Of a stretch of DNA of 64,000 bases, positions 4,773 through 38,353 are shown one piece after another (within the stretch, counting starts at the first letter, position 1; each line of letters opens with the position of its first letter). Source of the stretch: an uncultured bacterium. GTDB taxonomy: Bacteria > Actinomycetota > Actinomycetes > S36-B12 > CAIYMF01. The notes under the pieces are model-generated. The model was not told the DNA's origin and made no database searches. It was given only the letters and a program-made list of their open reading frames with translations. A program made the position numbers and the translations under genes. Location of the stretch: positions 47 to 64,046 of the forward strand of contig CAIYMF010000102.1 in NCBI GenBank assembly GCA_903927265.1. The letters run 5' to 3'.

Positions 4773-5633
4773 TCAGTCGGCGCTGAAGGCCGCCACCATA
4801 CGGTCGATCGCGACAGGCCCACCTTCAAGAAGGAACAGCGACGGCTCGACGAGTTCGACTTCGAGTACGCAGTAGCCACCCGAATCGTCACGCACTACGT
4901 CGATGCGACCGTAGAGCGGAATTCCGAAGCGCGCTGTCGCCTCCGCTATCGCCGCGGCGCCCACCTCAATCTGGGCGGCGGAGGCAGCATGGGGGGTGTT
5001 GGTTTCCTTGGCGTAGATTCCGCCAATTGACGTGGCCGCTGGAAGCGACACCCGCTTACTGGCCGAATGGCTGAACTCGCCGTTGAAGAACAACAACGGC
5101 CATTCGCCATCGACGGCAACTGATTCGAGCATCGGTTGCACCAACATCGACGCACCACGCGCGTGCAGACGCGCAATATGAGCGGCTGCTAGTTCCGTTT
5201 CGTGTGCGTGGTACGACGCTGCATCACGGCTACCTGCGCCGATCGCGGGTTTCACGACGAATGGACCGTCGGGAAAACGCGGCTCCGCACCCACTTCCAC
5301 GACCACCGTGGGAGTGATCGGAACACCAACCCGCTCGAGGTCGAGGAGGTAATGCTTGTCCATACTCCAGCGCATGAGATCGGGTGGATTGCGCAGGTCG
5401 GTCACCGCGTCGACGTGATCGACCCAGGCCAGGAATTCATCGATGCGTTCGGGGTAATCCCACGTCGAACGCGGCAACACCCGATCGAAGGAGGCCCAGT
5501 CAACCGAGGGGTCATCCCAATCGACCACGAAGACATCAACACCGGCAGCATGCAAGGCCGGCGGCCCGAAAGGTTCGTCGGGGTCATGCCCGCGCACGCT
5601 CTTCGCGGTCACCCAAGCCAAGCGAGTAATCAT
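4773..5633 (-). CDS. ATP-grasp domain protein (RimK/glutathione-synthetase-like)
   Basis: Overall pattern (FVVKPAIGAGSRDA..., LVQPMLES..., GRIDVV...LEVELVEPSLF) fits the ATP-grasp fold. Substrate unknown. Confidence 0.55.
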   Translation of the reverse strand: MITRLAWVTAKSVRGHDPDEPFGPPALHAAGVDVFVVDWDDPSVDWASFDRVLPRSTWDYPERIDEFLAWVDHVDAVTDLRNPPDLMRWSMDKHYLLDLERVGVPITPTVVVEVGAEPRFPDGPFVVKPAIGAGSRDAASYHAHETELAAAHIARLHARGASMLVQPMLESVAVDGEWPLLFFNGEFSHSASKRVSLPAATSIGGIYAKETNTPHAASAAQIEVGAAAIAEATARFGIPLYGRIDVVRDDSGGYCVLEVELVEPSLFLLEGGPVAIDRMVAAFSAD

Positions 5634-5656: not shown

Positions 5657-5716
5657 GACGTGCACGTCTCGTCACTTGCACACATCTTCAAGTGCAGTAG
5701 AGTCGAGGTACTCGAC
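5657..5716. promoter_or_regulatory. cluster of palindromes in the divergent ATP-grasp/ArsR promoter region
   Basis: Perfect 12-bp palindrome GACGTGCACGTC (5657-5668). CACTTG-N10-CAAGTG (5673-5694). GTCGAG-gta-CTCGAC (5702-5716). All lie between gene starts 5633(-) and 5747(+). Confidence 0.4.
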
Positions 5717-5746: not shown

Positions 5747-6082
5747 ATGGCTACTCCGCTCTATCAAGCAAAAGCGGAGTTCTTCCGCACCCTGGGTCAT
5801 CCGGTGCGCATTCGAGTTCTTGAGCTACTGTCCGAAAGAGATCACGCCGTACACGAGTTACTCGCTGCGATCGCGGTGGAGCCCAGCAACCTCTCGCAGC
5901 AACTCGCGGTCTTAAGGCGCGCGGGTCTGGTTCGACAGAGTCGCGAGGGCGGTCAGGTCGTCTACTCGGTCAGCGTTCCTGAAGTACGCGAACTGCTCGT
6001 TGTTGCTCGACGCATTCTCGTGGGAGTACTCGACGAACAAAGTGCGTTGAAGCAGGAACTGACACCCGGGTCTGCCGCGTGA
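5747..6082 (+). CDS. ArsR/SmtB family transcriptional regulator
   Basis: FFRTLGHPVRIRVLELLSERDHAVHELLAAIAVEPSNLSQQLAVLRRAGLV is a classic ArsR wHTH. Its stop overlaps the next start (GTGA). Confidence 0.85.
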   Translation: MATPLYQAKAEFFRTLGHPVRIRVLELLSERDHAVHELLAAIAVEPSNLSQQLAVLRRAGLVRQSREGGQVVYSVSVPEVRELLVVARRILVGVLDEQSALKQELTPGSAA

Positions 6083-6567
6083 GCGTACTGCGACTGCTGC
6101 AACTCATGCGTCGCACCGGTCGCGTTGCCGAGGCAGCCCCGGACCTTCCCGAGCAATGGGACGGCGTACCCGCGGCACTTTCTGGAAGCGTTCAGATTCG
6201 CCATGTCGACGCCGGCTCATGCAACGGCTGCGAGATTGAGATTGGCGCGGTCTTTGGTCCGGTCTACGACGCCGAGCGTTACGGTGCCCGACTTGTAGCC
6301 TCACCACGCCACGCCGATGTGTTGCTGGTGACGGGTGTAGTAACTCGCAACATGACCGAAGCGCTGGTGCGCACTGTCGAAGCCACACCTCGTCCGCGAT
6401 TGGTGATCGCTGTTGGCGACTGTGCACGCAACTGCGGTGTCTTTACTGATGGCCACGCCGTCGTGGGTTCGGTGAGTGATGTAGTCGACGTTGACCTTGA
6501 GGTGGCCGGCTGCCCACCTGAGCCAGACCACATCATTGCGGCACTGCGTTCGGTAACTGGCCGATGA
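6079..6567 (+). CDS. NuoB/HycG-like small subunit ([4Fe-4S] type) of an Ehr/group-4-hydrogenase-like complex
   Basis: GSCNGCEIE, GDCARNCGVF and GCPPEP match the conserved cluster-binding motifs of the NuoB/HycG family. Confidence 0.85.
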   Translation: MSVLRLLQLMRRTGRVAEAAPDLPEQWDGVPAALSGSVQIRHVDAGSCNGCEIEIGAVFGPVYDAERYGARLVASPRHADVLLVTGVVTRNMTEALVRTVEATPRPRLVIAVGDCARNCGVFTDGHAVVGSVSDVVDVDLEVAGCPPEPDHIIAALRSVTGR

Positions 6568-8561
6568 ATCCGCTCGAAGGGGCACTGACCGCCGAGTTGC
6601 TCATCGCGGCACTGGCATGCATCGTGGCGGCGCTTTCACCCGCTTCGATGCGTCGCTACCTCGCGGGAGTAGCAACGCTCGCGATGGCAGCGAGCGGAAT
6701 CGTCGCAGGAGGATTCGCACTGTCGGGTCACACTGGCACGCTTTCGGCACCCACCGCACTACCGGCGGTCGACCTGACGCTCGCACCCGACCGACTCGGC
6801 GGAGTATTCATCGTCATTGCCTCCGCCGTCACCTTGCTCGCGGCCCTGTACGCCATTGGTTACGTGCACGGCTCGGCCGACTCGCGCAGCGCCTGGCTCG
6901 CGTTCATCATTTTCACTCTTGGCCTTCAAATGGTGCCTGCAGCCGGCGACGTCATCACCTTCCTTCTCGCCTGGGAACTCATGGCGCTGGGGTCGGGTGT
7001 GCTCGTGCTGACCGACCATCGCACTCGCCCCCAGGCACGCTCGGCAGCGCTCTGGTACGCCGTGATGACTCAGCTGAGTTTTCTACTACTCCTCGCCGGA
7101 TTCGCAGTGCTCGCAACGGCAACAGGCTCGACCACCTTCGATGCACTTGTGACCGTGTCACCTACATCAACGACCGGTGCACTCGCATTCATCTTGCTCA
7201 CTCTCGGCTTCGCCACGAAGGCCGGACTTGTTCCACTGCACATCTGGCTGCCGCGCGCGCATCCCGAGGCTCCGAGTCACGCCTCGGCGGTGATGAGTGC
7301 GGCCATGGTGAAGATGGGCGTATACGGAACGCTGCTTGTAGTCCTGCGCTTTATGCCGGGAGGCCCTGCATGGTGGGGCATCGTCTTACTCGTACTTGGC
7401 GGAATTTCAGCTGTCTACGGAATCCTTCAGGCCTCCGTCACCAGTGATGTGAAGCGACTGCTCGCCTATTCAACGACAGAGAACATCGGCCTGATCTTCC
7501 TCGCGATCGGGGCATCGGTTCTACTAGCCGCGTACGGCATCACGGCCGCAAGCCAGGCGGCCCTGCTTGCCGCACTTCTTCTCGCAATCTCCCACGCCGC
7601 GTTCAAGTGCTCACTCTTCCTTGGCGCCGGGGCGATCGTGCACGCCACCGGCGAGCGCAATCTCGATCGCCTCGGCGGCCTGGGCGTACGCATGCCGTGG
7701 ACCGCCGCCGCATTCGGTGTGGCCGCACTCGGAGCCGCTGCGCTACCTGTGACGTCAGGCTTCGTCGCTGAGTGGACACTGTTCCAATCGTTCATCCACG
7801 GCGCTACTCGCGACGCAATCCCCCTCGCGGTTGCGTTGCCCGTTGCTGTTGCCGTTGTCGCTCTCACTGCCGGTCTAGCCCTCGTGACGTTCGTCAAACT
7901 CTACGGAATCGGTTTCCTCGCACGTCCACGCTCGACTGGCGCTGACGATGCTCATGAGGTGTCGCATCCGATGCGCTGGGCCGCACTGATCGGTGCCGCC
8001 GCCGTAATCGCGCTCGGAGTCTTTCCGGGACCTATCGCACAGGTTCTCGCAAGCGCAGTCGGCATTGGCGACGTCGCCACCATTGGTTTCGGCGGGCTGA
8101 GTCTGCCATCCCTCGGAGTACTGCTCGATCCGATGGCGTTGGCGATCACGGCGTTGGTATGCGCACTGCCCGTTGTTGTTGTCAGCGCACTGTCGGCACG
8201 ACGCCATCCGCGGCGCGCCACTGAACTTCCCTGGGGCTGCGGCGGGGTTCGCGTGAGTCCGCGTATGCAGTACACCGCGACGTCATACGCCGAACCGCTG
8301 ATGCGGGTTTTCGATGACACCTTGCGACCCGAACAAGACGTCGTCGTCACTCATGCCACTGAATCGCGCTACCTCGTCGCACAGGTGCGATACAGGCAGA
8401 AGCTTTCCGATGTCATCGAGGTGCGCGGCTACCGACCGCTCCTCGCGTTCGCTGACCGCCTCGGTGTGGTGAGTCGACGCCTGCAGAACGGCAGCCTGCA
8501 CCGCTACCTCACCTACTCATTTGTCGCGCTCATCGTGGTGTTAGTGGTGGTGTCGCTATGA
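6564..8561 (+). CDS. NuoL/HyfB-like proton-conducting antiporter subunit
   Basis: 665-aa polytopic membrane protein with Mrp/NuoL-type motifs (WELMALGS..., PLHIWLPRAHPEAPSHASAVMSA..., LAYSTTENIG). ATGA overlap with the previous gene. Confidence 0.85.
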   Translation: MNPLEGALTAELLIAALACIVAALSPASMRRYLAGVATLAMAASGIVAGGFALSGHTGTLSAPTALPAVDLTLAPDRLGGVFIVIASAVTLLAALYAIGYVHGSADSRSAWLAFIIFTLGLQMVPAAGDVITFLLAWELMALGSGVLVLTDHRTRPQARSAALWYAVMTQLSFLLLLAGFAVLATATGSTTFDALVTVSPTSTTGALAFILLTLGFATKAGLVPLHIWLPRAHPEAPSHASAVMSAAMVKMGVYGTLLVVLRFMPGGPAWWGIVLLVLGGISAVYGILQASVTSDVKRLLAYSTTENIGLIFLAIGASVLLAAYGITAASQAALLAALLLAISHAAFKCSLFLGAGAIVHATGERNLDRLGGLGVRMPWTAAAFGVAALGAAALPVTSGFVAEWTLFQSFIHGATRDAIPLAVALPVAVAVVALTAGLALVTFVKLYGIGFLARPRSTGADDAHEVSHPMRWAALIGAAAVIALGVFPGPIAQVLASAVGIGDVATIGFGGLSLPSLGVLLDPMALAITALVCALPVVVVSALSARRHPRRATELPWGCGGVRVSPRMQYTATSYAEPLMRVFDDTLRPEQDVVVTHATESRYLVAQVRYRQKLSDVIEVRGYRPLLAFADRLGVVSRRLQNGSLHRYLTYSFVALIVVLVVVSL

Positions 8562-9505
8562 ACTGGACCGCCACTGCCGTGGCCCTTTTCCAAGTACTCG
8601 TGGCAACGCTCGTTGCGCCCCTGGTGATTGGCATCACCCGCCAAACGCGAGCTCGTCTTGAAGGTCGCGCGGGCGCTGGCATTCTGCAGCCTTGGCGTGA
8701 CCTGCTCAAATTGCTGCGCAAAGAGACGCTGCAGGCCAATGGTGTGAGTTGGATTAGCTCGGTCGGGCCCATCATTGTGATGGCGTCCAGTCTCTTGGTG
8801 GCGGCGCTGCTTCCTCTGATCAGCACGATCACGTTGCCCTTGGTTCCCGACGACCTCTTCGTCGTCGTTTCGGTGCTCTTGATCGGCACGGTGGCAGTGG
8901 CCCTCATCGGGCTCGACGCCGGCTCGGCGTTCGGCGGCATGGGTTCCAGTCGCCACATGATGATTGCCGCACTCGTTGAACCTACTGTGCTCGTTGCGGT
9001 CTACGCGCTCTCGATTCCTGCCGGTTCGTCGCTGCTGTCGTCCATTGTCGCGACTCGACTTGACGCTCCTGCGGTGATCCTGTCACCAGTAAGCCTGCTA
9101 GCAGTCGTGGCGCTCTTCGTTGCTGTTCTTGCGGAAACCGGGCGACTACCTGTTGATAATCCGTCGACGCATCTCGAACTGACGATGGTGCACGAGGCCA
9201 TGATTCTCGAAAGTTCGGGGCGCGATCTCGCGTGGCTCGAACTCGGTTCGTGGTTGCGACTGTCAGCACTTCTCGGCCTCGTGGCGAACCTGATGATTCC
9301 GTGGGGACTGGCGACAGACGCCACCGTGCTGGCCCTCGTTATCGGAACTATCGCGCTACTGGTCAAGCTCACGGTGTTCGCCGCAGCGCTCGGCGCCGGC
9401 GAAGTGTTCCTCGCCAAATTGCGACTGTTTCGGGTGCCTGAACTTCTCGCCGGCTCATTCGTTCTGGCATTTCTTGCCGTCACCGCGTCGTATCTAGTCA
9501 CATGA
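8558..9505 (+). CDS. NuoH/HycD-like membrane subunit
   Basis: 315-aa membrane protein with RLPVDNPSTHLELTMVHEAMILESSGRDLA, the HycD/NuoH conserved loop. Confidence 0.85.
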   Translation: MNWTATAVALFQVLVATLVAPLVIGITRQTRARLEGRAGAGILQPWRDLLKLLRKETLQANGVSWISSVGPIIVMASSLLVAALLPLISTITLPLVPDDLFVVVSVLLIGTVAVALIGLDAGSAFGGMGSSRHMMIAALVEPTVLVAVYALSIPAGSSLLSSIVATRLDAPAVILSPVSLLAVVALFVAVLAETGRLPVDNPSTHLELTMVHEAMILESSGRDLAWLELGSWLRLSALLGLVANLMIPWGLATDATVLALVIGTIALLVKLTVFAAALGAGEVFLAKLRLFRVPELLAGSFVLAFLAVTASYLVT

Positions 9506-9515
9506 GGAGGGGAGC

Positions 9516-10172
9516 GTGAGCGAGAGCCTGTACGCACAGTTGATCAGCCTCACGGCTGGCACGTTGCTGCTCACCGCCGCCCTCATCGTGTGGCGTCGTT
9601 CGCTGCGCGCCTCAGTGCGCCTTCTCGCAATTCAAGGCATCGCTCTCGCCGGTCTGGTGGCAGTACTCGGATGGCATGAGCGCACAATCGAACTCGTTCT
9701 TGTCTCACTGCTCGTGCTCGGCCTCAAGGCCATCGTGCTTCCGCTGGTGCTCTCGCGCAACGTGCTCACCCACGATGACGACCGCGAGGTTCCGAGACTG
9801 AATCCAACGGCGTCGTTGATCTTTGCCGCGCTGCTGACGATGCTCGCGTACATCGTGTGCCGCCCGTGGATGGGTGACACTGACGATCCCACCTCCCGAG
9901 CGGTTCCCATCGGAATTGCGCTGGTACTCATCGGATTTCTTCTCTTAATCACCCGGCGCCGCGCCGCCTCGCAACTCATCGGCTTCCTCGTCCTCGATAA
10001 TGGCATCGCAACCGTTGCGTTTCTCACCGCAACGGGAGTTCCTCTCATCGTCGAACTCGGCGCCTCACTCGATGTGCTGCTGGTCGTGCTGATCTTGCAG
10101 GTTCTTACCGGGCGCATGCAGGTGAAGTTCGGCGGAACAGACCTCGACGACCTGACGGAGTTGAAGGACTGA
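9516..10172 (+). CDS. HyfE/HycP-like small membrane subunit
   Basis: 218-aa hydrophobic protein sitting in the position of hyfE/hycP. C-terminal part is NuoK-like (LDNGIATVAFL...). Confidence 0.7.
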   Translation: MSESLYAQLISLTAGTLLLTAALIVWRRSLRASVRLLAIQGIALAGLVAVLGWHERTIELVLVSLLVLGLKAIVLPLVLSRNVLTHDDDREVPRLNPTASLIFAALLTMLAYIVCRPWMGDTDDPTSRAVPIGIALVLIGFLLLITRRRAASQLIGFLVLDNGIATVAFLTATGVPLIVELGASLDVLLVVLILQVLTGRMQVKFGGTDLDDLTELKD

Positions 10173-11623
10173 TGGCCGCCTTTCTCTTCGTACCCCTCGT
10201 GGCCGCGCTAGTCGGCGCCGCCATCGGTTCGTTCAACCGACCCGCCGCATTCCGACGATTCACCGGCATCGGCACCAGCATCGCCATTCTGGTAAGCGGC
10301 ATCGCACTGTCGGCCGCGGCGCTTGCCTCGCACGTTGAATCCTCAGTGACGGGATTGCTTCGCGCCGATGCACTGTCGTCGTACATGTTGTGCGTTATCG
10401 GGGCTGTAGCGCTCACCGCCACGTGGGGTGGCATCAGAGGGTCGGGCAAAGCCGATGGAGGACGCGTCTACAACGCGCTCATCTGTGCATTTCTCGGCGC
10501 CATGTCGCTGGCAGTACTCGCCGACAATCTCGGCATCATGTGGGTCGCGATCGAACTCACCACCATCGCGACCGCATTCCTCGTCGGCCACGCGCGCACG
10601 GGGCGCGCCCTTGAAGCGGCGTGGAAGTACGTGATTCTCGGCTCGGTGGGCGTTGCCATCGCCTTCCTCGGGATCGTGTTGCTGTACGCGGCGACGCGCG
10701 AATCCGGCTCGCCAACGTTGTCGTGGCTCGAACTTGATCAAGGCAACCTTGCCCTCAATCCCGCGCTCGTGAAGGCCGCTGCAGCACTTGCCGTGCTTGG
10801 CTTCGCCACTAAAGCCGGTCTCGCGCCCATGCACTCGTGGTTACCCGACGCCCACAGTCAGGCCCCCGCCCCCGTTTCTGGGTTGATGTCGGGAGTGCTG
10901 CTCGCCGTGGCGTTCTACGCAGTGCTGCGCATTCAGTCGATCGCCGACGCAGTACTCGGCCCTGATCTCATGCGCGGAATGCTCGCAGTGGGTGGTCTGC
11001 TGTCTCTCGCCGTCGCCGCTGCGCTTCTTATCGGCCAGCGTGACTACAAACGAATGCTCGCCTACTCGTCGGTCGAACACATGGGGCTGATGGCACTCGG
11101 TGCCGCCGCCGGTGGCGTCATCGGCCTCACTGCCGTGTTGCTGCACATCCTCGGTCACGGCCTCACCAAGTCATCACTGTTCGTGGTATCGGGTCGCATT
11201 CAAGGCGCGGAAGGCACCACCACGATTTCCGATGTGCGCGGATTGCTAACCCGGCGCCCCGGGCTGGGTGTCCCATTCCTCATCGCGATGGTTGCTCTGC
11301 TCGGGTTTCCGCCGTTCAGTTTGTTCTTCAGCGAGGTCGGAATCTTGATTGCCGCGTGGACGCGCGGTATGGGGTGGGTTACGGGCATCGCGCTCGTGCT
11401 GCTTCTCGTTGTCTTCGCAGCACTGGCGCGACTCACCGCCCGGCTGGCCTTCGGCGCACCTGAAGAAGCGGAATCCTCCGAACCTCTCGTCGACACCTCA
11501 TCGCACGGGCCACGAACCCCGCTGATCATTGCGCTGTCGGTAACCGCCGTCATCGCGTTCGTCGCCGTTCCTCTTGGTTCACTGTTGTCGAGCGCCGTCG
11601 CGGTGCTAAGCGGTGGGTCATGA
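10172..11623 (+). CDS. NuoM/NuoN/HyfF-like antiporter subunit
   Basis: 483-aa membrane protein with PMHSWLPDAHSQAPAPVSGLMSGVLL and LAYSSVEHMG motifs. 1-nt TGATG junction upstream. Confidence 0.85.
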   Translation: MAAFLFVPLVAALVGAAIGSFNRPAAFRRFTGIGTSIAILVSGIALSAAALASHVESSVTGLLRADALSSYMLCVIGAVALTATWGGIRGSGKADGGRVYNALICAFLGAMSLAVLADNLGIMWVAIELTTIATAFLVGHARTGRALEAAWKYVILGSVGVAIAFLGIVLLYAATRESGSPTLSWLELDQGNLALNPALVKAAAALAVLGFATKAGLAPMHSWLPDAHSQAPAPVSGLMSGVLLAVAFYAVLRIQSIADAVLGPDLMRGMLAVGGLLSLAVAAALLIGQRDYKRMLAYSSVEHMGLMALGAAAGGVIGLTAVLLHILGHGLTKSSLFVVSGRIQGAEGTTTISDVRGLLTRRPGLGVPFLIAMVALLGFPPFSLFFSEVGILIAAWTRGMGWVTGIALVLLLVVFAALARLTARLAFGAPEEAESSEPLVDTSSHGPRTPLIIALSVTAVIAFVAVPLGSLLSSAVAVLSGGS

Positions 11624-13113
11624 CGATTCCCATTCCGCGCACCGACTCACGGCACGTTGATCGGTCGCGACTTGTCACTGAGGCCGAAGCCTTACTGGGT
11701 GCCGGGTTTCGAGTTGCGCTCGTCGCCTGTCACGACGACGGCGACTCACTGCGCGCGGTCTACGTGTTCACTGCCAGCCGCCCCGATCGGCGAGTCGAGT
11801 TGGTAGTCGCGGTTCCACGTGATGATGCGTGGGTGCCAACACTCGCAGGGCTCAACTACACGGCCGGTCGCTTCGAACGCGAGATGCGCGACATGTTCGG
11901 GCTTCGGCCAGAGGGTCACCCCCTTCCGCAGCGACTGGTGCGGCATGGTCACTGGCCCCAAGGCTGGTATCCGATGCTGCACGATGCTGATCCCGATCCC
12001 CAATTCGGAGCGCACCCCGGCACCTTCCCCTTCCTCGACGTTGAGGGCGACGGCGTCTACGAGATTCCAGTCGGCCCAGTTCACGCCGGATTGATTGAGC
12101 CTGGCCACTTCCGCTTCTACGTGGTGGGCGAAACCATCTTGCGCATGAAGGCGCGGCTGTGGTTCGTGCACCGCGGAGTTGAGCGCCTGTTCGAGGGCCG
12201 TGCGCCGACCGATGGCATCGAGATCGCCGAGCGGATCAGTGGCGACACGGCCGTCGGTCATTCAGTGGCGTATGCGATGGCAGTGGAATCGGCGGCTGGC
12301 ATTGAGGTCAGCCTCGTTGATCGACAACTTCGGGCGCTCCTGCTTGAACTCGAGCGTGCGTACAACCACGTTGGCGACATGGGCATGATCGCGAACGACG
12401 TCGGCTACGGAATTGCCAACGCACACGCACAGCGAATTCGTGAGTCGCTCTTACGCGTCAACCGTGCCGTAACCGGACACCGTCTACTGCGCGGCGCTGT
12501 TTCCATCGGTGGAACACAGGTGCGCGAACTTCCTGACGAAACGCTGCTGCTGAGCATCACCAACGACGTTGCCGAACTCGCAGCGATCACCCTCGGGCAG
12601 TCGATGGTGATGGATCGCCTGACCGGCACCGCCGTGCTATCGCAACACAAATCGCTCGACCTCGGCACGCTGGGCTACGTCGCTCGCGCTTCGGATGTAT
12701 CGATCGATGCTCGACTTGACCATCCCTTCGTCGATCTTGGCCCCGACTTCTCCGTCGTTACCGAGCAGACCGGCGATGTTCTGGCTCGCTACATGCTTCG
12801 TGTGCGTGAGTTCGAAGTGTCGATGAAGGTGACAGCTCACCTCCTGCGCGAACTCAACGGCTCGCTCGGAAGCGGCACTCGCGCAGCGCCTTACTCAGCC
12901 GGAAGTGGACTGGGAATCGTCGAAGCCTGGCGCGGAACTCTCGTGCACCGAGTGGAGTTGGGTGACATTGGTCAGGTGACTCGGGTGAAAGTCGTCGATC
13001 CGTCATTCGTTAATTGGCCGGCGTTGTCGATGTCACTCGCCGACACGATCGTGCCGGACTTTCCCCTGGTCAATAAGAGCTTCAACCAGTCGTACGCCGG
13101 CAACGACCTGTAG
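11620..13113 (+). CDS. fused NuoC-NuoD/HycE-like 'large subunit' lacking all [NiFe] cysteine ligands
   Basis: GPVHAGLIEPGHFRF and LWFVHRGVE are large-subunit signatures. The ligand motifs read ERISGDTAVGH (expected RxCGxCxxxH) and NKSFNQSYAGNDL at the C-terminus (expected DPCxxCxxR). There is one Cys in the whole protein (VACHDD, in the NuoC-like part). Confidence 0.85.
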   Translation: MTIPIPRTDSRHVDRSRLVTEAEALLGAGFRVALVACHDDGDSLRAVYVFTASRPDRRVELVVAVPRDDAWVPTLAGLNYTAGRFEREMRDMFGLRPEGHPLPQRLVRHGHWPQGWYPMLHDADPDPQFGAHPGTFPFLDVEGDGVYEIPVGPVHAGLIEPGHFRFYVVGETILRMKARLWFVHRGVERLFEGRAPTDGIEIAERISGDTAVGHSVAYAMAVESAAGIEVSLVDRQLRALLLELERAYNHVGDMGMIANDVGYGIANAHAQRIRESLLRVNRAVTGHRLLRGAVSIGGTQVRELPDETLLLSITNDVAELAAITLGQSMVMDRLTGTAVLSQHKSLDLGTLGYVARASDVSIDARLDHPFVDLGPDFSVVTEQTGDVLARYMLRVREFEVSMKVTAHLLRELNGSLGSGTRAAPYSAGSGLGIVEAWRGTLVHRVELGDIGQVTRVKVVDPSFVNWPALSMSLADTIVPDFPLVNKSFNQSYAGNDL

Positions 13114-13222: not shown

Positions 13223-13474
13223 ATGTCGAACGAATTTGCCACCGCGGTCGACGCACTCATCGACCGAGCCAACAGCGACACCCGCCTGCGCGACCGACTC
13301 ATTAATGATCCAGCCGGGACGATCACTGCCATCACCTGCATGACAGTGCCCGATGACTGGAACATCGTGGCCATCGAGGCAGCCGACGGCTCAGTCAGTC
13401 TTGGGTTCGTCAACGACGAACTGCCGATGGAGTATCTCGAACTCCTCAGCGGTGGTTCTGGCTGTGCCCAGTAG
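13223..13474 (+). CDS. NHLP/Nif11-like leader-peptide family protein (possible RiPP precursor with a 5-aa tail after GG)
   Basis: Strong RBS GAGGAG 5-6 nt upstream of the ATG. ALIDRANSDTRLRDRLINDPAGTI...VPDDWNIVAIE...ELPMEYLELLSGG-SGCAQ follows the nitrile-hydratase-leader-peptide pattern (A..D....LL.DP ... P......V.E ... L.eLe..sGG). Confidence 0.5.
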   Translation: MSNEFATAVDALIDRANSDTRLRDRLINDPAGTITAITCMTVPDDWNIVAIEAADGSVSLGFVNDELPMEYLELLSGGSGCAQ

Positions 13475-13504: not shown

Positions 13505-14209
13505 GTGTTGAATCACAATGCGGCACGGTCCCTCCAGATCCGTTGCACCCGCGCGGGGCGCTACGTCATTCGAGCGGAGAATCAACTCACCGACGTTGAC
13601 GCCATGCGGATCGAGATCCTGGCTGCCCTGGATGCCGACGGAGCGGATCCGGCTGAGATCGTAGAAGTCCATTACGTGGGCGATACAGCCCTTGATGAGC
13701 TGTTCAACTCCCAACCCACTCCCCCGGTGAGTCTGGGCTGGGAGGCGCTCATTCTGCCTGGCTCGAAGCGTCGACTATTTCGACTTCCCCAATCGACGCA
13801 GATCACGTTCGGCATTCGCGACGCCGAGCCAGAACACCTGCGCAACGTACACCGATGGAGTGCGCAGGATTACGATGACCCAACAGTCGACCACGATGAG
13901 TCGCTCCTGATTCGCCTCGAGGGTCAGGTGATCGGCTGGATTCCCGTGTGGCGGCTCACCTCACACACATCCCTCGTGCGCCACACCCGAATCGACCAGA
14001 AAGTCTTCGCTGACGATATAAGGCGCCATACGTTGCTGGCATTGGGCACCTACGCTCGCGCTGTGGAGCACCAACTCGAACAAGGGCGCGCAGTCATGAC
14101 GTGGCTACCTGACGACAACAATGAGGTGAACCACTTCAAAGTTCAGGTTGGCGGAGGCGTTCAGGCCACTCATTGGCTCAGCGTGCGCGTCAGACGCGAC
14201 CTGCAGTAA
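13505..14209 (+). CDS. hypothetical protein (no family recognised; weak GNAT-like C-terminal pattern)
   Basis: 234-aa ORF (GTG start) 30 nt after the leader-like gene on the same strand. Lower GC than the core. A small hairpin (TTGCGC-aca-GCGCAA, 14220-14234) follows the stop. Confidence 0.45.
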   Translation: MLNHNAARSLQIRCTRAGRYVIRAENQLTDVDAMRIEILAALDADGADPAEIVEVHYVGDTALDELFNSQPTPPVSLGWEALILPGSKRRLFRLPQSTQITFGIRDAEPEHLRNVHRWSAQDYDDPTVDHDESLLIRLEGQVIGWIPVWRLTSHTSLVRHTRIDQKVFADDIRRHTLLALGTYARAVEHQLEQGRAVMTWLPDDNNEVNHFKVQVGGGVQATHWLSVRVRRDLQ

Positions 14210-16373: not shown

Positions 16374-16420
16374 GGGGCGACCGCGCTCACCTGGACTTAC
16401 TCACACACGTTGAACCTCAG

Positions 16421-16493
16421 AGCCGACGCCCGGACTCGAACCGGGAACCACCTGTTTACAAGACAGGTGCGCTGCCAATTGCGCCACGCCGGC
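16421..16493 (-). tRNA. tRNA-Thr (anticodon TGT)
   Basis: Reverse complement GCCGGCGTGGCGCAATTGGCAGCGCACCTGTCTTGTAAACAGGTGGTTCCCGGTTCGAGTCCGGGCGTCGGCT. It has a 7-bp acceptor stem (one G-U), the anticodon stem CCTGT/ACAGG with loop CTTGTAA, and the T-arm GGTTCGAGTCC. CCA is not encoded. Confidence 0.85.
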
Positions 16494-17207: not shown

Positions 17208-17356
17208 AGGGCGTCGGAGGTAGTTCACCCCCCATTCTGCGGAACTTGGGGACTGTCATTTACGTGACATAGACGGTGTTCGGACCCGATGTGCCGGGTT
17301 ATCGTGCCTTAGGAAGAAGTCAGCCGCTCTCGCGGCACGAGGAGTGGGAAGCCGCT

Positions 17357-19942
17357 ATGCGTGACAAGAGTCGGCACCGTGGAACTGGTGCCTTGCCGTG
17401 GCTGGCTGCTGCCCTCATGATCACCGGTGCCGCGATTGCGGCACCCGCTTCGGCAGTCTCCCCCACACTCACCCCGACATACAGTGCGACCAAGGGTGAC
17501 CTGAAGGTTGTGGTCAGCGGGATGCCTACCGGGGTGAAGGCCACGGTCACGGTCACGAAATCGGGGAAGGCCCTCGCCCCCACGGCCACCGCCACTCGCC
17601 TGTACTCGAATTTGGCGACCGGCACCTACACGGTCACGGCGTCCAACGTGCCGGTGGCCAAGGGCACGATGGTTCCTTCCCCGAAGATCCGCACCATCAC
17701 CGTGGTGAAGAACAAGGTCGTCAGCGCGCCGGTGAAATACGTGTTCGTCGGGCAACCCGTCAGCGTCACATCCAAGGTCAATGGGAAGACACCGGGCTGG
17801 GTCTTCACCTCGAGCGCAACCACAATGGCGCTCACGGTCACCAACAAATCCACGAAGCGGGCGCTCACCTCGTTCACCATCGTCGTCCCCACCGGGGTTG
17901 CTGCGCCGACAAGCGTCAAGGTTGCGGCCAGCAACTCCCGGAAGTGGACCGCCAGCGTGACCAGTTGTGGCACGGTTACCAAGTGCGTCAAGCGCATTGT
18001 GGTGACTGCCAAATCACCCCTTGCCACGAACCAACTGACTTACGGAAAGGTGGCCATCGTCACGCTGAAGTTCACGTCGCCGAGTGTGTCGGGCACGTCG
18101 CAATTCCTTCTGCGCGACATCGGCGCGGGCTACTTCACAGTCAGCGGAAGCCAGGCGTCCCTGCGCACCGTCAAGGGAACGAGCATTGCTGCCACACCCG
18201 GTACACCCATCACAGACGCCACTATTCAACTCGGCACCAACCCCGACAACACCGTCAGCACCACGCTCGACAACGGCGCCTACGGGCCAGTCAACCTCTA
18301 CTACGAACCCGCGACCTGCAGCAACGGCGCCGCACCGCCGTGCGCCACGGTGACCCTCGACGGCACATTCACCAACCCCGTCGCACCATTCGATGAGCTC
18401 TACAGCAACACCGCCCCGGCGAGCATCTCGTTCACCTGCGCCAATGCGACGTGCCCTCAAGCCCCGTGGGTCGGTCAGGTGAGCAGCGGTCGCAGCCACG
18501 CGTGCGCGGTGATGCGCGGCGGAACCTCAGCAACCGACACGCACGTTGAGTGTTGGGGTGACAACGATTACGGCCAACTGGGTCGTTCGACAAACTTCGG
18601 AACTCAGAATCCCAACCCGACGCCCACGGCTGTACCTGGTGTGACCGGCGTGACATCGGTGGCTGCCGGTTGGTATGACACGTGCGCCCTCAAGACCGAC
18701 ACGACTGTGGTGTGCTGGGGCGATAATTCCGACCTGCAGTTGGGTGCCCCCACCAGCGGCACTGAGTCGATCGTGCCCGTCGTGGTTCCTGACCCCGTGA
18801 GTCCTTCGCTACCGCTCAGCGGCGTGATTGCGATCGTGCCTGGCCCGTCTCACACATGCGCGGTGAAGAACGACAACACCGTGGTCTGTTGGGGAAGTAA
18901 CTGGCACGGCCAACTCGGCATCAGCGCCGGCAACGGGTTCCCTAGCCAACACCAGCCCCCTACCGTGGTGCCCCTCAGCGGCGTGACGAGTGTTGCGTTG
19001 GGAACCGATCACACCTGCGCCCTTCTCACCGACAACACCGTGAAGTGCTGGGGTAGCAATGCCAACGGGCAACTTGGAAATGCGGCAAACGCGGGTACCG
19101 CGACAACCACGATTCAGCCCCTCTCCGCACTTGATGCAAACGGCACGCCGATAGGCCCGATCTCATCCATCAGCTCGGGTGCCGAGTTCACCTGCGCCGC
19201 GATGACCGACACAAGCCACACCGTCCAATGCTGGGGTAATAACGCAACCGGACAGCTTGGTGTGACTCCGTTCACGAGCGGTCCTGCATGGACAAACATC
19301 CCTGTGAGCGTGATGGCCGAGGCGGGCGACTTCTTAAATGGAGTGCAGGAAATCTCGGCGAACAGTGCCGCGGTTGGCGAAGGCCAGGTGTGCGCGCGCG
19401 TCACCGGCGGAACTCTTGCGTGCTGGGGCGCGAACGACGCCGGACAACTCGCCCAGGATGCGACAGTCGCAATCCTCCCCGCAGCTCGCCCACTTTCCAC
19501 CCCCACTGGCGTGACCCAACTGTCGATGGGGGGTTCGTTCGCCTGCACCACTCTGCTGACACTCGGTATCTCGTGCTGGGGTCTCAACGACTTCGGCCAA
19601 CTTGGTCGAATTAGTGGCGCCGGTTCGATGACACCGAATCCGACCCCCACCGTGATTCCCGGTTGGGCGAGCGAACCACGGTTGGCCGACTACTACGCCT
19701 ACCCGATTAGCGTGTCGCTGAAAGTCGGCGGAAGTTACCACCCCTTCGCCACGACACCTGCGTGTGCGCCGATCGATGGAACGAGTAACCAAACAGGTCA
19801 GCTGTTCACAACGGCCGCGCAGTCGGCCCACTTCTGCGCCGACGTGTGGAACTCGAGCCGCAATTACCAGACGCAGGAGGGAACACTTTCGCGCACGATT
19901 CTCTTCGTTGAAGACCCGAAGTTCACGCCGATTTCGCGCTGA
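17357..19942 (+). CDS. secreted RCC1-repeat (seven-blade beta-propeller) protein with N-terminal Ig-like region
   Basis: Signal peptide MRDKSRHRGTGALPWLAAALMITGAAIAAPASA. Seven repeats of the xCWGxNxxGQLG motif (VECWGDNDYGQLG, VVCWGDNSDLQLG, VVCWGSNWHGQLG, VKCWGSNANGQLG, VQCWGNNATGQLG, LACWGANDAGQLA, ISCWGLNDFGQLG). No sortase or TM anchor seen. Confidence 0.8.
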   Translation: MRDKSRHRGTGALPWLAAALMITGAAIAAPASAVSPTLTPTYSATKGDLKVVVSGMPTGVKATVTVTKSGKALAPTATATRLYSNLATGTYTVTASNVPVAKGTMVPSPKIRTITVVKNKVVSAPVKYVFVGQPVSVTSKVNGKTPGWVFTSSATTMALTVTNKSTKRALTSFTIVVPTGVAAPTSVKVAASNSRKWTASVTSCGTVTKCVKRIVVTAKSPLATNQLTYGKVAIVTLKFTSPSVSGTSQFLLRDIGAGYFTVSGSQASLRTVKGTSIAATPGTPITDATIQLGTNPDNTVSTTLDNGAYGPVNLYYEPATCSNGAAPPCATVTLDGTFTNPVAPFDELYSNTAPASISFTCANATCPQAPWVGQVSSGRSHACAVMRGGTSATDTHVECWGDNDYGQLGRSTNFGTQNPNPTPTAVPGVTGVTSVAAGWYDTCALKTDTTVVCWGDNSDLQLGAPTSGTESIVPVVVPDPVSPSLPLSGVIAIVPGPSHTCAVKNDNTVVCWGSNWHGQLGISAGNGFPSQHQPPTVVPLSGVTSVALGTDHTCALLTDNTVKCWGSNANGQLGNAANAGTATTTIQPLSALDANGTPIGPISSISSGAEFTCAAMTDTSHTVQCWGNNATGQLGVTPFTSGPAWTNIPVSVMAEAGDFLNGVQEISANSAAVGEGQVCARVTGGTLACWGANDAGQLAQDATVAILPAARPLSTPTGVTQLSMGGSFACTTLLTLGISCWGLNDFGQLGRISGAGSMTPNPTPTVIPGWASEPRLADYYAYPISVSLKVGGSYHPFATTPACAPIDGTSNQTGQLFTTAAQSAHFCADVWNSSRNYQTQEGTLSRTILFVEDPKFTPISR

Positions 19943-23743: not shown

Positions 23744-24960
23744 GGCTCTGCCATTTCCGCCACCGGCGACGTTCTCTGCACCCACCGCCCATATGCCGAG
23801 GCCCATGGAGTCCCCGTGATTCCATGGGCGATCACGCTCAACAGCACCGTGACTCCCACGACACCCGTGGCATCACGCAGCACTCCCACACCACCGAGTT
23901 CCTCGAATGCGATCAGCGCGAACACCACGCTGGCCAAACCGCGTGGACCAAACCAGCCGATGAAACCCTTCGTCACAGAGGCGAATCCGGTACCCCACAA
24001 CACCAACCAGACCGGAAGGATGCGGAACACCGTCAGGGCCAACAACGCGAAGACAAGTGAATGCCAGGTGAGGTACTCGCCGAGGTGGGCCACGAAGATG
24101 ACCCCGAAAAGACCCCACACCGCGTAACCCAAGAGTGTCGATACCGACTCCGTTGTCACGAGATCTTCTTCATGGTGCGCCGAACCCACTGCTGCAAGGG
24201 CTGTACCCGCGACGAACGCCGCGATGAATCCATTTCCATGGAGAAGGGACGCGCCAAAGTAGGCAACAATCGGAATCACGGCGACACTGACAGGCACCAG
24301 TGCAGGAATCGCCCACTGTCGATTGCGGGCGCGCTTCATCAGCCACCCGGCACCGAAACCTGCGGCCACTCCGATGACACCGCCGATCGCGATTTCGAGC
24401 GATGCTTCCCCGACTGCGTGCCACACGTCGGAAGCGGCCGGCGCGTTGGCAGAGGCCGCTAGCGCGAAGAGCACAATCGGGGTGGCCAGTCCATCGTTCA
24501 AACCACTCTCGCCATTGAGAATGCGACGGATGCGCGCGGGCACGACGGGGTTGAGAACCGTCGCTGCACCAAGACCGGCATCCGTCGGCGCCAGCGCCGA
24601 GGCGACGAACAGTGCGAGCCATACGCCCGCTTCCGGAAAGAGCAGGCGCGCCACGACCCAACCCAGGGCAATCGTGAGGGGTAGGCCGATCAGCAGCAGG
24701 CGAAGTAACACACCTTTGTCTGCGACGAGTTGACGCGGATGTAGTTGGGCCGCATCGTGAAACAGGATCATGGCGAGCGTGGCTTCGGCGATCGTTCTCA
24801 CCATGCCCGCATCGATCCCCAGCGGGATGTGTCCAATTCCGAAGAGTGTCCCGGCGGCCGTAAAGAGAATCGCCGCGCTGAGATTCCACGAAGCAAAACG
24901 CCGAGAAAAAGCCGTGTACATCACCACGACCAACGCAAAGACTGCGATTCCCGCCATCAC
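23740..24960 (-). CDS. cation:proton antiporter (Na+/H+ exchanger, CPA1-like)
   Basis: 406-aa polytopic membrane protein with LAPTDAGLGAATV and NGESGLNDGLATP, which are Na+/H+ exchanger family motifs. Confidence 0.8.
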   Translation of the reverse strand: MMAGIAVFALVVVMYTAFSRRFASWNLSAAILFTAAGTLFGIGHIPLGIDAGMVRTIAEATLAMILFHDAAQLHPRQLVADKGVLLRLLLIGLPLTIALGWVVARLLFPEAGVWLALFVASALAPTDAGLGAATVLNPVVPARIRRILNGESGLNDGLATPIVLFALAASANAPAASDVWHAVGEASLEIAIGGVIGVAAGFGAGWLMKRARNRQWAIPALVPVSVAVIPIVAYFGASLLHGNGFIAAFVAGTALAAVGSAHHEEDLVTTESVSTLLGYAVWGLFGVIFVAHLGEYLTWHSLVFALLALTVFRILPVWLVLWGTGFASVTKGFIGWFGPRGLASVVFALIAFEELGGVGVLRDATGVVGVTVLLSVIAHGITGTPWASAYGRWVQRTSPVAEMAEP

Positions 24961-38293: not shown

Positions 38294-38353
38294 GGGCATT
38301 CCTTTCACGTGGGCCAGCCGGGTTGCTGGCTGGGGCGGGTGTGTCACCCGGCC

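Follow-up and report, generated by a model that had tools for sequence, protein, structure and literature searches.

Complexes of the energy-converting-hydrogenase-related (Ehr) type (Coppi 2005 and Marreiros et al. 2013, as cited in later literature) are defined in the literature by, among other features, a large subunit without metal ligands, and are placed adjacent to the group 4f hydrogenases. Examples include Geobacter sulfurreducens GSU0739-45 and clusters of Nitrospira, ammonia-oxidising archaea and CPR bacteria. The Mycobacterium tuberculosis (Mtb) locus Rv0081-Rv0087, published as Rv0081, Rv0082, Rv0083, hycD, hycP, hycQ and hycE, is named there as an Ehr homologue, and is described as very unlikely to be a hydrogenase. 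Reviews up to 2025 call the function of Ehr unknown, and electron transfer or ion pumping has been shown for no Ehr complex.

Operon layout and closest relatives

The DNA analysed here is a 64-kb stretch (the window) from an uncultured Actinomycetes MAG. An ORF check recovered seven ORFs, all on the + strand, at the coordinates claimed in a first-pass annotation of the sequence, and the subunit assignments made there agree with Pfam and NCBIfam for every product (for the HyfE-like subunit with NCBIfam only, the Pfam scan giving no match).

5657-5716, no strand: three short palindromes, candidate operators, upstream of the ArsR gene in a divergent intergenic region of 113 bp
5747-6082, + strand: ArsR/SmtB-family regulator, 111 aa (Pfam HTH_5 3.5e-11; NCBIfam HTH_metalloreg 2.8e-22)
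6079-6567, + strand: NuoB/HycG-like small subunit, 162 aa (Pfam Oxidored_q6 2.5e-30)
6564-8561, + strand: HyfB/HycC/NuoL-like antiporter-type subunit, 665 aa, with a C-terminal extension (Pfam Proton_antipo_M; NCBIfam HyfB 6.7e-162, a match below the cut-off)
8558-9505, + strand: HycD/NuoH-like subunit, 315 aa (Pfam NADHdh 3.6e-34)
9516-10172, + strand: HyfE-like small membrane subunit, 218 aa (NCBIfam PRK11492 HyfE 1.4e-22)
10172-11623, + strand: HyfF/NuoN-like antiporter-type subunit, 483 aa (Pfam Proton_antipo_M; NCBIfam HyfF 4.1e-92)
11620-13113, + strand: fused NuoC-NuoD/HycE-like large subunit, 497 aa (Pfam Complex1_30kDa, Complex1_49kDa and NiFeSe_Hases)

The genes had been described as chained throughout by start-stop overlaps. 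This is the case at five junctions, which read GTGA, ATGA, ATGA, TGATG and ATGA in gene order, but the HycD-like and HyfE-like genes are separated by a 10-nt spacer containing GGAGG. The locus is a genuine seven-gene operon for a membrane complex derived from hydrogen-producing enzymes, with the nickel-iron site lost. Its peripheral module consists of two proteins, the NuoB-like subunit with one [4Fe-4S] cluster and the fused NuoC-NuoD-like large subunit, and its membrane part of four: the HycD/NuoH-like, the HyfE-like and two antiporter-like subunits.

In common with Ehr complexes, the operon encodes a group-4-hydrogenase-like large subunit without CxxC metal ligands, a NuoB-like small subunit, and NuoH-like, HyfE-like and NuoL/M/N-like membrane subunits; it differs in belonging to a NuoB-first subtype without a ferredoxin subunit. 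The ligand loss, the Rv0081-type regulator, the synteny with Mycobacterium and the literature equating the Mtb locus with Ehr bear out the class proposed in the first pass, and the locus is very probably an Ehr-type complex of the actinobacterial Rv0082-Rv0087 kind. The proposed correspondence to Rv0081-Rv0087 also stands: the seven-gene order is identical, regulator first, as judged from the match to Rv0081 (the only Mtb sequence compared directly), loci of other Mycobacterium species and the published Mtb list. The large-subunit orthologue in Mycobacterium persicum shows 56% identity, its ligand positions reading S/S/S/G. Unlike the Mtb locus, the window comes from a non-mycobacterial host and its flanks are unrelated, with no equivalents of Rv0079/Rv0080 or Rv0088 seen.

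E. coli formate hydrogenlyase (Hyc, 7Z0S) is the top solved relative of four subunits (HycE 6.9e-57, HycG 4.7e-32, HycC 1.2e-51, HycD 3.9e-36), and the HyfB/E/F-type subunit set resembles that of E. coli hydrogenase 4 (Hyf). In contrast to both, the window has no NiFe ligands, HycF/HyfH, HycB/HyfA ferredoxins, FdhF, HycI or hyp genes, and its large subunit has no cleavable C-terminal extension. Complex I/NDH-1 and Pyrococcus MBS (Mbx) share the modular set of NuoB, C, D, H, K-like and L/M/N-like subunits, whereas the window operon is without NuoI, NuoA/J and NuoEFG. MBS and complex I have, like Ehr, given up H2 chemistry; MBS keeps two of the four Cys.

Homologues are numerous, with >7,800 proteins found and at least 599 related stretches in a genome scan, covering Actinomycetota, Rokubacteria, Chloroflexi, Nitrospirota, CPR bacteria and archaea. 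Among 80 loci from many phyla, almost every one that holds the whole operon has the six-gene core in collinear order, and the members retrieved from Nitrospirota, Thaumarchaeota and CPR bacteria (the latter L051, L055, L058 and L067) share the motifs of the window operon and this core. In Actinomycetota, Rokubacteria and Chloroflexi the NuoB-first subtype usually goes with an ArsR gene, and no ferredoxin subunit was found in NuoB-first loci. In many non-actinobacterial members NuoB follows the large subunit, and some carry a 2x[4Fe-4S] domain fused to NuoB.

A Pfam scan of 49 window ORFs (nearly all the large ones) and a six-frame motif scan agree with the earlier claim that the 64-kb window holds no ferredoxin/HycF/NuoI, hyp, hycI, formate dehydrogenase or NuoEFG genes. 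It had been suggested that genes co-occurring with the operon would point to an electron-input module; the survey, run over the 80 loci, yielded no recurrent operon partner, no other gene family recurring in >12 loci.

The former metal site

The large subunit contains GPVHAGLIEPGHFRF at residue 152, FVHRGVE at 182, ERISGDTAVGH at 204 and SFNQSYAGNDL at 487-497, and its sole Cys is Cys37 in the NuoC-like part, all as first reported. When aligned to E. coli HycE (7z0s_E), RISGDTAVGHS faces RVCGICGFAHS and NQSYAG faces DPCYSC: the [NiFe] Cys positions are occupied by Ser207, Thr210, Ser491 and Gly494, all four being non-Cys in an in-frame, conserved ORF. The protein ends where the C-terminus of a mature hydrogenase lies. 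Judged from this alignment, the complex cannot bind Ni-Fe, and would therefore neither produce nor oxidize H2.

Many annotations and tuberculosis papers take the Mtb homologue for a working [NiFe]-hydrogenase of group 4 or a formate hydrogenlyase. The best sequence and fold matches are indeed E. coli HycE, HycG, HycC and HycD, homologues are labelled 'Ni,Fe-hydrogenase III large subunit' or 'formate hydrogenase', and Rv0082-87 is termed a putative [NiFe]-hydrogenase. However, an active hydrogenase is refuted at the sequence level by the replacement of all four ligand Cys, the single Cys lying in the NuoC-like part, and no in-frame TGA is available for Sec because the ORF is continuous. HycF, hyp, hycI and FDH genes were not found in the 64-kb window, and Mtb is itself reported to be without maturation genes; we give this reading practically no credence.

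Positions 207, 210, 491 and 494 are S, T/S, S and G in 73, 70, 75 and 75 of 77 family members, respectively, and the C-terminus is NKSFN[Q/L]SYAGNDL in 120/120 of the closest homologues (the Q variant in 119/120). The former metal site forms a conserved polar, acidic pocket of Ser207, Gly208, Asp209, Thr/Ser210, Asp460, Ser491, Tyr492 and Gly494. Ehr-specificity is confined to S207, D209, D460, S491 and G494, whereas true hydrogenases share another 51 invariant positions, and elsewhere the machine keeps the proton-path residues Glu160 and Arg438 and the antiporter Glu/Lys residues. An AF2 model predicts the fused NuoC-NuoD fold (pTM 0.78; best fold match 7z0s_E (HycE), TM 0.76), although the monomer is unreliable at 130-184 and 464-497, precisely the pocket regions.

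The nearest true hydrogenases are two uncharacterised relatives, in Thermincola (L063) and a Peptococcaceae member (L079), which share the six-gene core and the conserved motifs IEPGHFRF and NKS..SY..D, and whose membrane subunits show no residues distinguishing them from those of Ehr. They differ in keeping CCCC at the metal site and in a Fer4-NuoB fusion. In a rough NJ tree both sit close to the base, together with the most divergent Ehr members of bacteria and archaea, and they are probably 'group 4f' hydrogenases.

The small subunit has the expected cluster motifs SCNGCE at 47, GDCARNC at 113 and GCPP at 144, confirming the first-pass annotation, and no ferredoxin domain. In the alignment Cys48, 51, 115 and 145 fall on the cluster Cys of HycG (7z0s_G) and MbhJ (6cfw_J), and each is kept in 45-47 of 48 family members; judged by this, all four Cys for the proximal [4Fe-4S] cluster are retained in the subunit.

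A hydrogenase operon that has lost its active site might also be a functionless, decaying relic, given the missing catalytic ligands, the empty neighbourhood survey and a literature that demonstrates function for no member. This seems very improbable: every ORF is intact and translationally coupled, the replacement residues are near-invariant across a range that spans Actinomycetota and archaea, with overall identities of 36-95%, and the cluster ligands and antiporter residues are conserved. Moreover, the Mtb genes are regulated, hycP/hycQ are reported to be necessary for optimal growth, and every Ehr subunit of Geobacter has been detected as an abundant protein. From its conservation, the Cys-free pocket is judged to be under selection, not decaying.

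Membrane subunits and proposed mechanism

In the HyfB-like subunit (best PDB match HycC 7z0s_C), TM5 Glu138, TM7 Lys219 and TM12 Lys348 are invariant (57/57), and TM8 Lys250 is present in 33/57. The HyfF-like subunit, with best PDB matches MbsH, MbhH, MrpD and NuoN, has invariant Glu128, Lys214 and Lys333 (47/47). The HycD-like subunit (best PDB match HycD 7z0s_D) has invariant E141, E193, D200, E207, E213, E218 and E282, and connects the peripheral module with the membrane arm. In the HyfE-like subunit E180 and D186 are conserved; its family profile gave a weak PDB match to MbhG alone (E = 0.13), and its C-terminal half is probably NuoK/MrpC/MbhG-like.

The best explanation, taken whole, is an Ehr-type complex performing redox-coupled ion translocation (probability about 0.85); for the ion translocation without H2 taken by itself, the balance tips slightly in favour. 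A soluble one-electron, ferredoxin-like donor would dock on the NuoB face that is covered by HycF/NuoI in related enzymes and reduce the single [4Fe-4S] cluster. The electron would then pass to an acceptor sitting in the remodelled pocket, where NuoB, NuoD and NuoH meet, most plausibly menaquinone in the window's actinobacterium, and the charge change would drive H+ or Na+ by way of the HycD-like channel and both antiporter-like subunits. This specific ferredoxin-to-menaquinone route is tentative, as donor and acceptor are both inferred: no NuoI/HycF subunit or conserved neighbour gene identifies the donor, and two findings speak against an obligatory quinone acceptor: the family occurs in CPR bacteria, and Margulisbacteria relatives are reported in genomes without quinone biosynthesis.

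Two further observations count against this explanation. The TM8 Lys is missing family-wide from the HyfF-like subunit (Ala245 in the window, S/N/A in the family), and the complex I quinone-headgroup ligands are absent from the large subunit, Nqo4 Tyr87 aligning with invariant Gly208 and His38 with Ile159.

The complex could instead be an Mrp-like cation/proton antiporter or ion channel with no net redox, its hydrogenase-derived head sensing redox state or charge through the [4Fe-4S] cluster and gating it under hypoxia or reductive stress. Both antiporter-like subunits are nearest to MbhH, MrpD and MrpA with the Glu/Lys set kept, no donor or acceptor module is encoded, and the gained carboxylates Asp209 and Asp460 and hydroxyls of the pocket are a better fit to cation/proton binding than to organic redox chemistry. 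Members are also found in CPR bacteria, which are not known to have respiratory chains. Mrp antiporters, however, function without a NuoB/NuoD module, and the entire proton path and the surroundings of the cluster are shared with true hydrogenases, suggesting that catalysis-like chemistry persists. The 2x[4Fe-4S] ferredoxin domain fused to NuoB in some members implies real electron input, and we consider the antiporter improbable, though worth keeping in view.

Redox-coupled translocation might also run in reverse, with proton-motive force lifting electrons from the quinol pool or a mid-potential donor to a low-potential carrier such as ferredoxin. The exposed single cluster and two antiporter modules would suit this, and the analogous Ech- and Rnf-type enzymes are reversible. 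Lineages with an aerobic or microaerobic life often carry the family (Actinomycetota, ammonia-oxidising archaea and, among Nitrospirales, about half of the genomes); such carriers need reduced ferredoxin, for instance Nitrospira, which uses the reductive TCA cycle to fix CO2. If so, the complex would supply reduced ferredoxin in aerobes without another source. The same quinone-site objections apply, however, and the family is also found in CPR bacteria and strict anaerobes, making reverse operation unlikely.

Regulation and place in the family

The best PDB match of the ArsR protein is Mtb Rv0081 (6jmi; 7e-33 over residues 3-110, with the runner-up at 1.7e-8), which identifies the gene as an Rv0081 orthologue. 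It contains no Cys, and the canonical alpha3N and alpha5 metal-site residues are absent. AGGAG lies 8 nt upstream of its ATG, and its stop forms the GTGA overlap with the NuoB-like start. Rv0081 orthologues with 76-82% identity directly precede these six genes, in collinear order, in Mycobacterium loci (L013, L016) and actinobacterial MAG loci (L018, L032). The operon is co-transcribed with this regulator without metal-sensing residues and probably auto-repressed by it.

The three palindromes noted upstream are present: GACGTGCACGTC (5657-5668), CACTTG-N10-CAAGTG (5673-5694) and GTCGAG-GTA-CTCGAC (5702-5716), compared with a chance expectation that we estimate at ~0.4 per 160 bp. Related loci have different, AT-rich palindromes at the same place. 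These are candidate operator sites to which the Rv0081-type repressor may bind.

The locus is neither a new kind nor a rarity: the Ehr class is widespread and already described, and the Mtb locus has already been called an Ehr homologue. The suggestion that this copy would be a tractable model fails for the window itself, which comes from an uncultured MAG; the same operon or its large subunit is present in cultured Streptomyces, Nonomuraea, Arthrobacter and Cryobacterium, and Streptomyces or Arthrobacter carriers are therefore better models. What is added here is the strong conservation of the Cys-free pocket itself, with the cluster ligands and the antiporter Glu/Lys residues likewise retained.

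Operon organization and genomic context

ORF positions confirmed the seven-gene operon that the first-pass annotation had placed at 5747-13113 on the plus strand. Its gene-by-gene assignments agreed with both Pfam and NCBIfam, and the motifs quoted for the encoded proteins were all located. GC3-based gene calling was uninformative at 62% GC and was replaced by greedy longest-ORF selection.

Genes of the operon, with length and supporting family matches
5747-6082 (+): ArsR/SmtB helix-turn-helix regulator, 111 aa (Pfam, NCBIfam)
6079-6567 (+): NuoB-like small subunit, 162 aa (Oxidored_q6)
6564-8561 (+): HyfB-like membrane subunit, 665 aa (Proton_antipo_M; best NCBIfam model HyfB)
8558-9505 (+): NuoH/HycD-like subunit, 315 aa (NADHdh)
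9516-10172 (+): HyfE-like subunit, 218 aa (HyfE, by NCBIfam only)
10172-11623 (+): HyfF-like membrane subunit, 483 aa (Proton_antipo_M; best model HyfF)
11620-13113 (+): fused NuoC-NuoD/HycE-like large subunit, 497 aa (Complex1_30kDa, Complex1_49kDa and a short NiFeSe_Hases match)

The genes had been described as chained throughout by start-stop overlaps. The junctions read from the DNA are, in order, GTGA, ATGA, ATGA, a 10-nt spacer with GGAGG, TGATG and ATGA; the description holds for five of the six and fails at the spacer, between the HycD-like and HyfE-like genes. Through its GTGA overlap the regulator gene is tied to the structural genes that follow. When compared with the PDB (phmmer and family profile), the HyfE-like subunit gave a weak MbhG match alone (E = 0.13). 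Two ORFs adjoining the operon on its 3' side, 13223-13474 (+, 83 aa) and 13505-14209 (+, 234 aa), are called as genes in the public assembly, but were rejected as extra subunits because they have no Pfam or NCBIfam match and none of the 80 related loci considered below has a homologue.

Pfam searches of 49 ORFs (nearly all the large ORFs of the 64-kb window), together with a six-frame motif scan, bore out the reported absence from the window of a HycF/NuoI-type ferredoxin subunit, hyp/hycI maturation genes, formate dehydrogenase and NuoEFG. The CxxCxxCxxxC motif is missing from all frames, and neither the operon nor the window contains NuoI, NuoA, NuoJ or an input module (NuoEFG or an NdhS/ferredoxin site). 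The operon differs from complex I (NDH-1) in lacking NuoI, NuoA and NuoJ, and its HyfE-like subunit is at most weakly NuoK/MbhG-like. The neighbouring genes are of actinobacterial housekeeping type (cysS, ispF, ispD, carD, a SenX3/RegX3-like pair, phoU, GT4 glycosyltransferases, ppk, pst, glgC and glgA), the G+C content is even at about 0.60-0.65, and an uncultured Actinomycetes MAG encodes the exact operon proteins on a 71-kb contig. An Rfam scan of the window returned only a tRNA.

Other features observed in the window
4773-5633 (-): ATP-grasp protein resembling the D-cycloserine synthetase DcsG, divergent from the ArsR gene
16420-16493 (-): tRNA-Thr (anticodon TGT), the sole RNA gene in the 64 kb (Rfam, ARAGORN)
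17276-19942 (+): 888-aa RCC1-repeat (WD40_RLD) protein, adjoining the following gene
19946-23806 (-): 1286-aa protein with an adenylate/guanylate cyclase domain, an AAA_16 ATPase and TPR repeats
25220-26470 (+): single-subunit Na+/H+ exchanger (Pfam Na_H_Exchanger, 2.3e-37), 12 kb from the operon
27361-28776 (-) and 48793-49980 (-): a full CysS and a second, divergent 395-aa protein
34017-35318 (+): GT4 glycosyltransferase
37754-38347 (-): 197-aa protein with a sub-threshold match to the histone H1-like HC2 family

The ATP-grasp protein matches NCBIfam DcsG at 4.3e-69, under the curated cut-off, and carries Pfam DcsG_N in the public annotation; its gene is not conserved beside the operon in the other loci. 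The divergent 395-aa protein matches the C-terminal domain of CysS only and may be MshC, and the GT4 glycosyltransferase may be MshA; the two candidates would fit a mycothiol-producing actinobacterium. The 197-aa protein is probably a Lys/Ala-rich actinobacterial nucleoid protein. The Na+/H+ exchanger is a reminder that the organism owns other cation/proton antiporters, and has no further relevance here.

The large subunit and its remodelled pocket

The large subunit is homologous to its counterpart in group 4 [NiFe]-hydrogenases and to NuoD (Pfam Complex1_49kDa, 6e-27; NiFeSe_Hases, 2.6e-10), and its nearest solved relative is E. coli HycE in the formate hydrogenlyase structure (7z0s_E, E = 6.9e-57). 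In the HycE alignment RISGDTAVGHS stands opposite RVCGICGFAHS, and NQSYAG opposite DPCYSC, which places Ser207, Thr210, Ser491 and Gly494 at the positions of the four metal-binding Cys. Both CxxC pairs are thus absent, as had been proposed, and the Ser/Thr/Ser/Gly set is kept family-wide. The single Cys of the protein is Cys37, in the NuoC-like part as noted previously, and the four Cys (or Sec) ligands were sought by alignment of the large subunit and not found; selenocysteine is excluded by the continuous ORF. An out-of-frame RGCGSC at 12152, within the gene, was considered as a frameshift-hidden ligand motif and rejected, as the in-frame protein is conserved there. The protein ends just past Gly494, where the C-terminus of a mature hydrogenase falls, leaving nothing for a HycI-type protease to cut. 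Among the 120 closest homologues, every one ends in NKSFN(Q/L)SYAGNDL, with Q in 119.

An AlphaFold2 monomer model of the large subunit (pTM 0.78) has a mean pLDDT of 71.9, with values below 50 in residues 130-184 and 464-497, the pocket and interface regions, where the pocket geometry is not readable. Foldseek matched the model first to HycE (7z0s_E, TM 0.76) and then to the fused NuoCD of E. coli complex I; no Ehr-type (energy-converting-hydrogenase-related) structure was among its PDB matches.

As judged from the sequence, the complex cannot bind Ni-Fe, and the missing ligands imply that it would neither produce nor consume H2. That it might be a true hydrogenase is excluded by the loss of all four ligand Cys and the lack of a HycF/NuoI-type subunit in the window. 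A position was called Ehr-specific if its conservation among 75 Ehr sequences reached at least 93% and each of the four true-hydrogenase references (HycE, MbhL and the loci L063 and L079 described below) had another residue. Only five large-subunit positions qualified: Ser207, Asp209, Asp460, Ser491 and Gly494. A further 51 invariant positions are common to the true hydrogenases, including Glu160 (GPxHxxxxEP), His214, Arg438 (RG..H), Tyr492 and Asp496. The comparison indicates that the metal site was exchanged for a defined hydroxyl/carboxylate set with the remainder of the machine the same, which is the signature of a changed function rather than of decay. The alternative of a decaying relic is excluded by this conserved pocket set together with the kept machinery.

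The small subunit has Cys at 48, 51, 115, 119 and 145. Cys48, Cys51, Cys115 and Cys145 align with the proximal [4Fe-4S] ligands of HycG and MbhJ and are conserved in 45-47 of 48 family members, in agreement with the annotated cluster motifs; Ser47 is the one Ehr-specific position of this subunit. In the HyfB-like subunit the TM5 Glu (E138), TM7 Lys (K219) and TM12 Lys (K348) are invariant (57/57); the TM8 Lys (K250), which this protein has, occurs in 33/57 across the family. E128, K214 and K333 of the HyfF-like subunit are likewise invariant (47/47). Its TM8 Lys, conserved in MbhH, MrpD, NuoM and NuoN, is replaced in every family member by S, N, A or T (Ala245 here), a pattern suggesting that only one of the two antiporter modules may be fully active. 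In the HycD-like subunit a series of acidic residues is invariant, and no position is Ehr-specific relative to the true-hydrogenase references; the invariant His205 and His212 in one of its loops were rejected as an Ehr-specific His site, as at least one reference has both. The conservation of the cluster Cys, the antiporter Glu and Lys residues and the HycD-like acids argues that ion translocation and the Fe-S cluster are still needed.

Regulator, synteny and distribution of the family

The best solved relative of the ArsR protein is M. tuberculosis Rv0081 (6jmi, E = 7e-33 over residues 3-110), the next PDB match being at 1.7e-8. In the alignment it resembles Rv0081 in having no Cys and neither the canonical alpha3N nor alpha5 metal ligands. 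The 113-bp divergent intergenic region contains three short palindromes (5657-5668, 5673-5694 and 5702-5716), recovered by a direct script at the site first reported, against a chance expectation that we estimate at ~0.4 per 160 bp; a generic inverted-repeat search upstream of the ArsR gene reported none. An operator upstream of the ArsR gene is therefore plausible as a prediction, but the palindromes found at the same position in related loci are different and mostly AT-rich (for example the TCAATTG type in Mycobacterium loci), so the operator sequence is too poorly conserved to define here. A scan for sigma-70 and terminator consensus sequences gave nothing above shuffled expectation.

A protein search scored 8,000 candidates, of which 7,854 matched at E <= 1e-10; the closest named proteins are from Microbacteriaceae and Micrococcaceae (Lacisediminihabitans, Cryobacterium and Arthrobacter livingstonensis). 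Species-representative genomes were scanned with the peptide patterns I(E/D)PGHFRF and NKSFNQSY, at least 599 stretches were found to encode a relative, and 80 loci were kept. These include Actinomycetota (Mycobacterium, Streptomyces, Nonomuraea, Acidimicrobiia), Rokubacteria, Chloroflexi, Nitrospirota, Acidobacteriota, Methylococcales, several CPR lineages, Thaumarchaeota and Methanomassiliicoccales. NuoH-like and Mrp/NuoL-M-N-like membrane subunits lie in the same cluster, and the six-gene core is collinear in nearly all kept loci with the whole operon. The large subunit, its CxxC loss, the small-subunit [4Fe-4S] Cys and the membrane subunits all support the proposed membership in the Ehr class. 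Complexes of this kind have been named Ehr in papers on Geobacter, Nitrospira, ammonia-oxidising archaea, CPR bacteria and Margulisbacteria, with function unassigned up to 2025.

The resemblance to the M. tuberculosis Rv0081-Rv0087 locus, proposed in the first-pass annotation, is correct in both gene order and ArsR leader, given the Rv0081 match, the synteny in Mycobacterium and the published M. tuberculosis gene table. The table lists the Rv0081 regulator, the oxidoreductases Rv0082 and Rv0083, hycD, hycP, hycQ and hycE, the order found in the window; the comparison was made through this table and other Mycobacterium loci, as M. tuberculosis DNA is not among the 80 kept. Four Mycobacterium and Mycolicibacter loci (L005, L008, L013 and L016) have the operon order seen here with Rv0081 orthologues upstream. 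Orthologues with 76-82% identity directly precede the six core genes, again collinear, in L013 (Mycobacterium persicum), L016 (Mycobacterium sp.) and two loci from actinobacterial MAGs (L018 and L032), and the M. persicum large subunit has Ser/Ser/Ser/Gly at the ligand positions. According to the literature the M. tuberculosis locus is induced by hypoxia, controlled by DosR, MprA and Rv0081, and associated with hypoxia and macrophages; many papers and annotations still call it a hydrogenase. The idea that it is Ehr-type is already published.

In Actinomycetota, Rokubacteria and Chloroflexi the operon comes with ArsR genes of the Rv0081 type. An ArsR gene also lies directly downstream of the large-subunit gene in six loci (L003 at ~11650, L016 at ~11540, L020 at ~11504, L022 at ~11583, L024 at ~11584 and L032 at ~11590) from several Mycobacterium, Acidimicrobiia and other actinobacteria; in L003, L016 and L032 it is a second, more divergent paralogue beside the upstream Rv0081 orthologue. 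The co-occurrence survey that had been suggested for finding an electron-input module was run on the 80 loci, and no partner enzyme travels with the operon: when the other ORFs were clustered, ArsR and antisense shadow ORFs were the only families to exceed 12 loci.

The NuoB-first arrangement, without a ferredoxin domain or HycF/NuoI-type subunit, occurs in Actinomycetota, Rokubacteria, Chloroflexi, CPR bacteria and a few other lineages, usually with an Rv0081-type regulator in the first three. In most other lineages the NuoB-like gene follows the large subunit, and these loci often have an N-terminal 8-Cys domain on NuoB or a ~110-aa ferredoxin ORF before it. Two Firmicutes loci, L063 (Thermincola ferriacetica) and L079 (Peptococcaceae), have the six-gene core with all four NiFe Cys kept.

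Loci with a Fer4 (2x[4Fe-4S])-NuoB fusion
L063, 9914-12273: fusion locus (Fer4-Oxidored_q6 by Pfam)
L079, 10001-11380: large subunit
L079, ~11401-12111: small subunit

A rough neighbour-joining tree places both close to its base and E. coli HycE outside all other members, in keeping with the published placement of Ehr beside group 4f. Of the true hydrogenases these two lie closest to the Ehr family, for which they would be a natural experimental comparator.

Predicted function and significance

The sequences describe a complex with one cluster and no ferredoxin subunit, and we infer, with a probability of about 55%, that it translocates ions in a redox-coupled manner. The cluster of the NuoB-like subunit would take its electron straight from a soluble one-electron donor, on the surface occupied by HycF/NuoI in related enzymes, and would hand it on to an acceptor in the remodelled pocket where NuoB, NuoD and NuoH meet, most plausibly menaquinone in an actinobacterium; the resulting changes in pocket charge would drive the membrane arm. 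The specific route from ferredoxin to menaquinone is tentative, and the odds are against it. In an HMMER alignment to T. thermophilus Nqo4 (2fug_4), Tyr87 stands opposite Gly208, which is invariant (77/77), and His38 opposite Ile159, the alignment being less certain in the loop around His38; from these pairings the complex lacks the quinone ligands of complex I. The occurrence of the family in CPR bacteria also counts against a quinone, as do Ehr-bearing Margulisbacteria reported to have no quinone biosynthesis.

Translocation could also proceed as in an Mrp-like transporter, redox-gated or purely ion-exchanging. The pair of carboxylates gained in the pocket would lend itself to binding cations or protons; we consider such a transporter unlikely. 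Reverse electron flow to a low-potential carrier, driven by the proton motive force, seems quite improbable.

Beyond redox-coupled translocation as such, the Cys-free pocket (Ser207-Gly-Asp209-Thr/Ser210, Asp460 and Ser491-Tyr-x-Gly494) might be a new kind of catalytic or ion-coupling centre, a speculative reading that we regard as rather doubtful. The pocket adjoins the kept [4Fe-4S] cluster and the kept hydrogenase proton path, and its conservation extends from Actinomycetota to Thaumarchaeota and CPR bacteria. If such a centre exists, Ehr complexes would carry out chemistry of a third kind within the complex I superfamily, distinct from both H2 and canonical quinone chemistry. This reading concerns the whole Ehr family, of which the window is one example, with nothing unique to the locus.

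The initial observation is real and its interpretation right: the system is a further member of a very widespread, already named class, adds nothing new in kind and would not surprise a specialist. The suggestion that this copy offers a tractable model does not hold, since the organism is uncultured and cultured carriers exist in Streptomyces, Nonomuraea, Arthrobacter and Cryobacterium, so the question is no more testable here than in those. Within the complex I and membrane-hydrogenase superfamily, few groups lacking an assigned function are as widespread as Ehr complexes, and the comparison sharpens the question: the metal site has given way to a conserved Ser/Asp/Thr/Ser/Gly plus Asp set with the remainder like that of the closest true hydrogenases, the operon has no constant companion gene, and the NuoB-first subtype has no ferredoxin subunit. 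The lasting value lies in these family-level constraints on pocket, cluster, antiporter residues and synteny, which give concrete mutagenesis targets and favour cultured carriers such as Streptomyces and Arthrobacter over M. tuberculosis or the MAG for establishing function.
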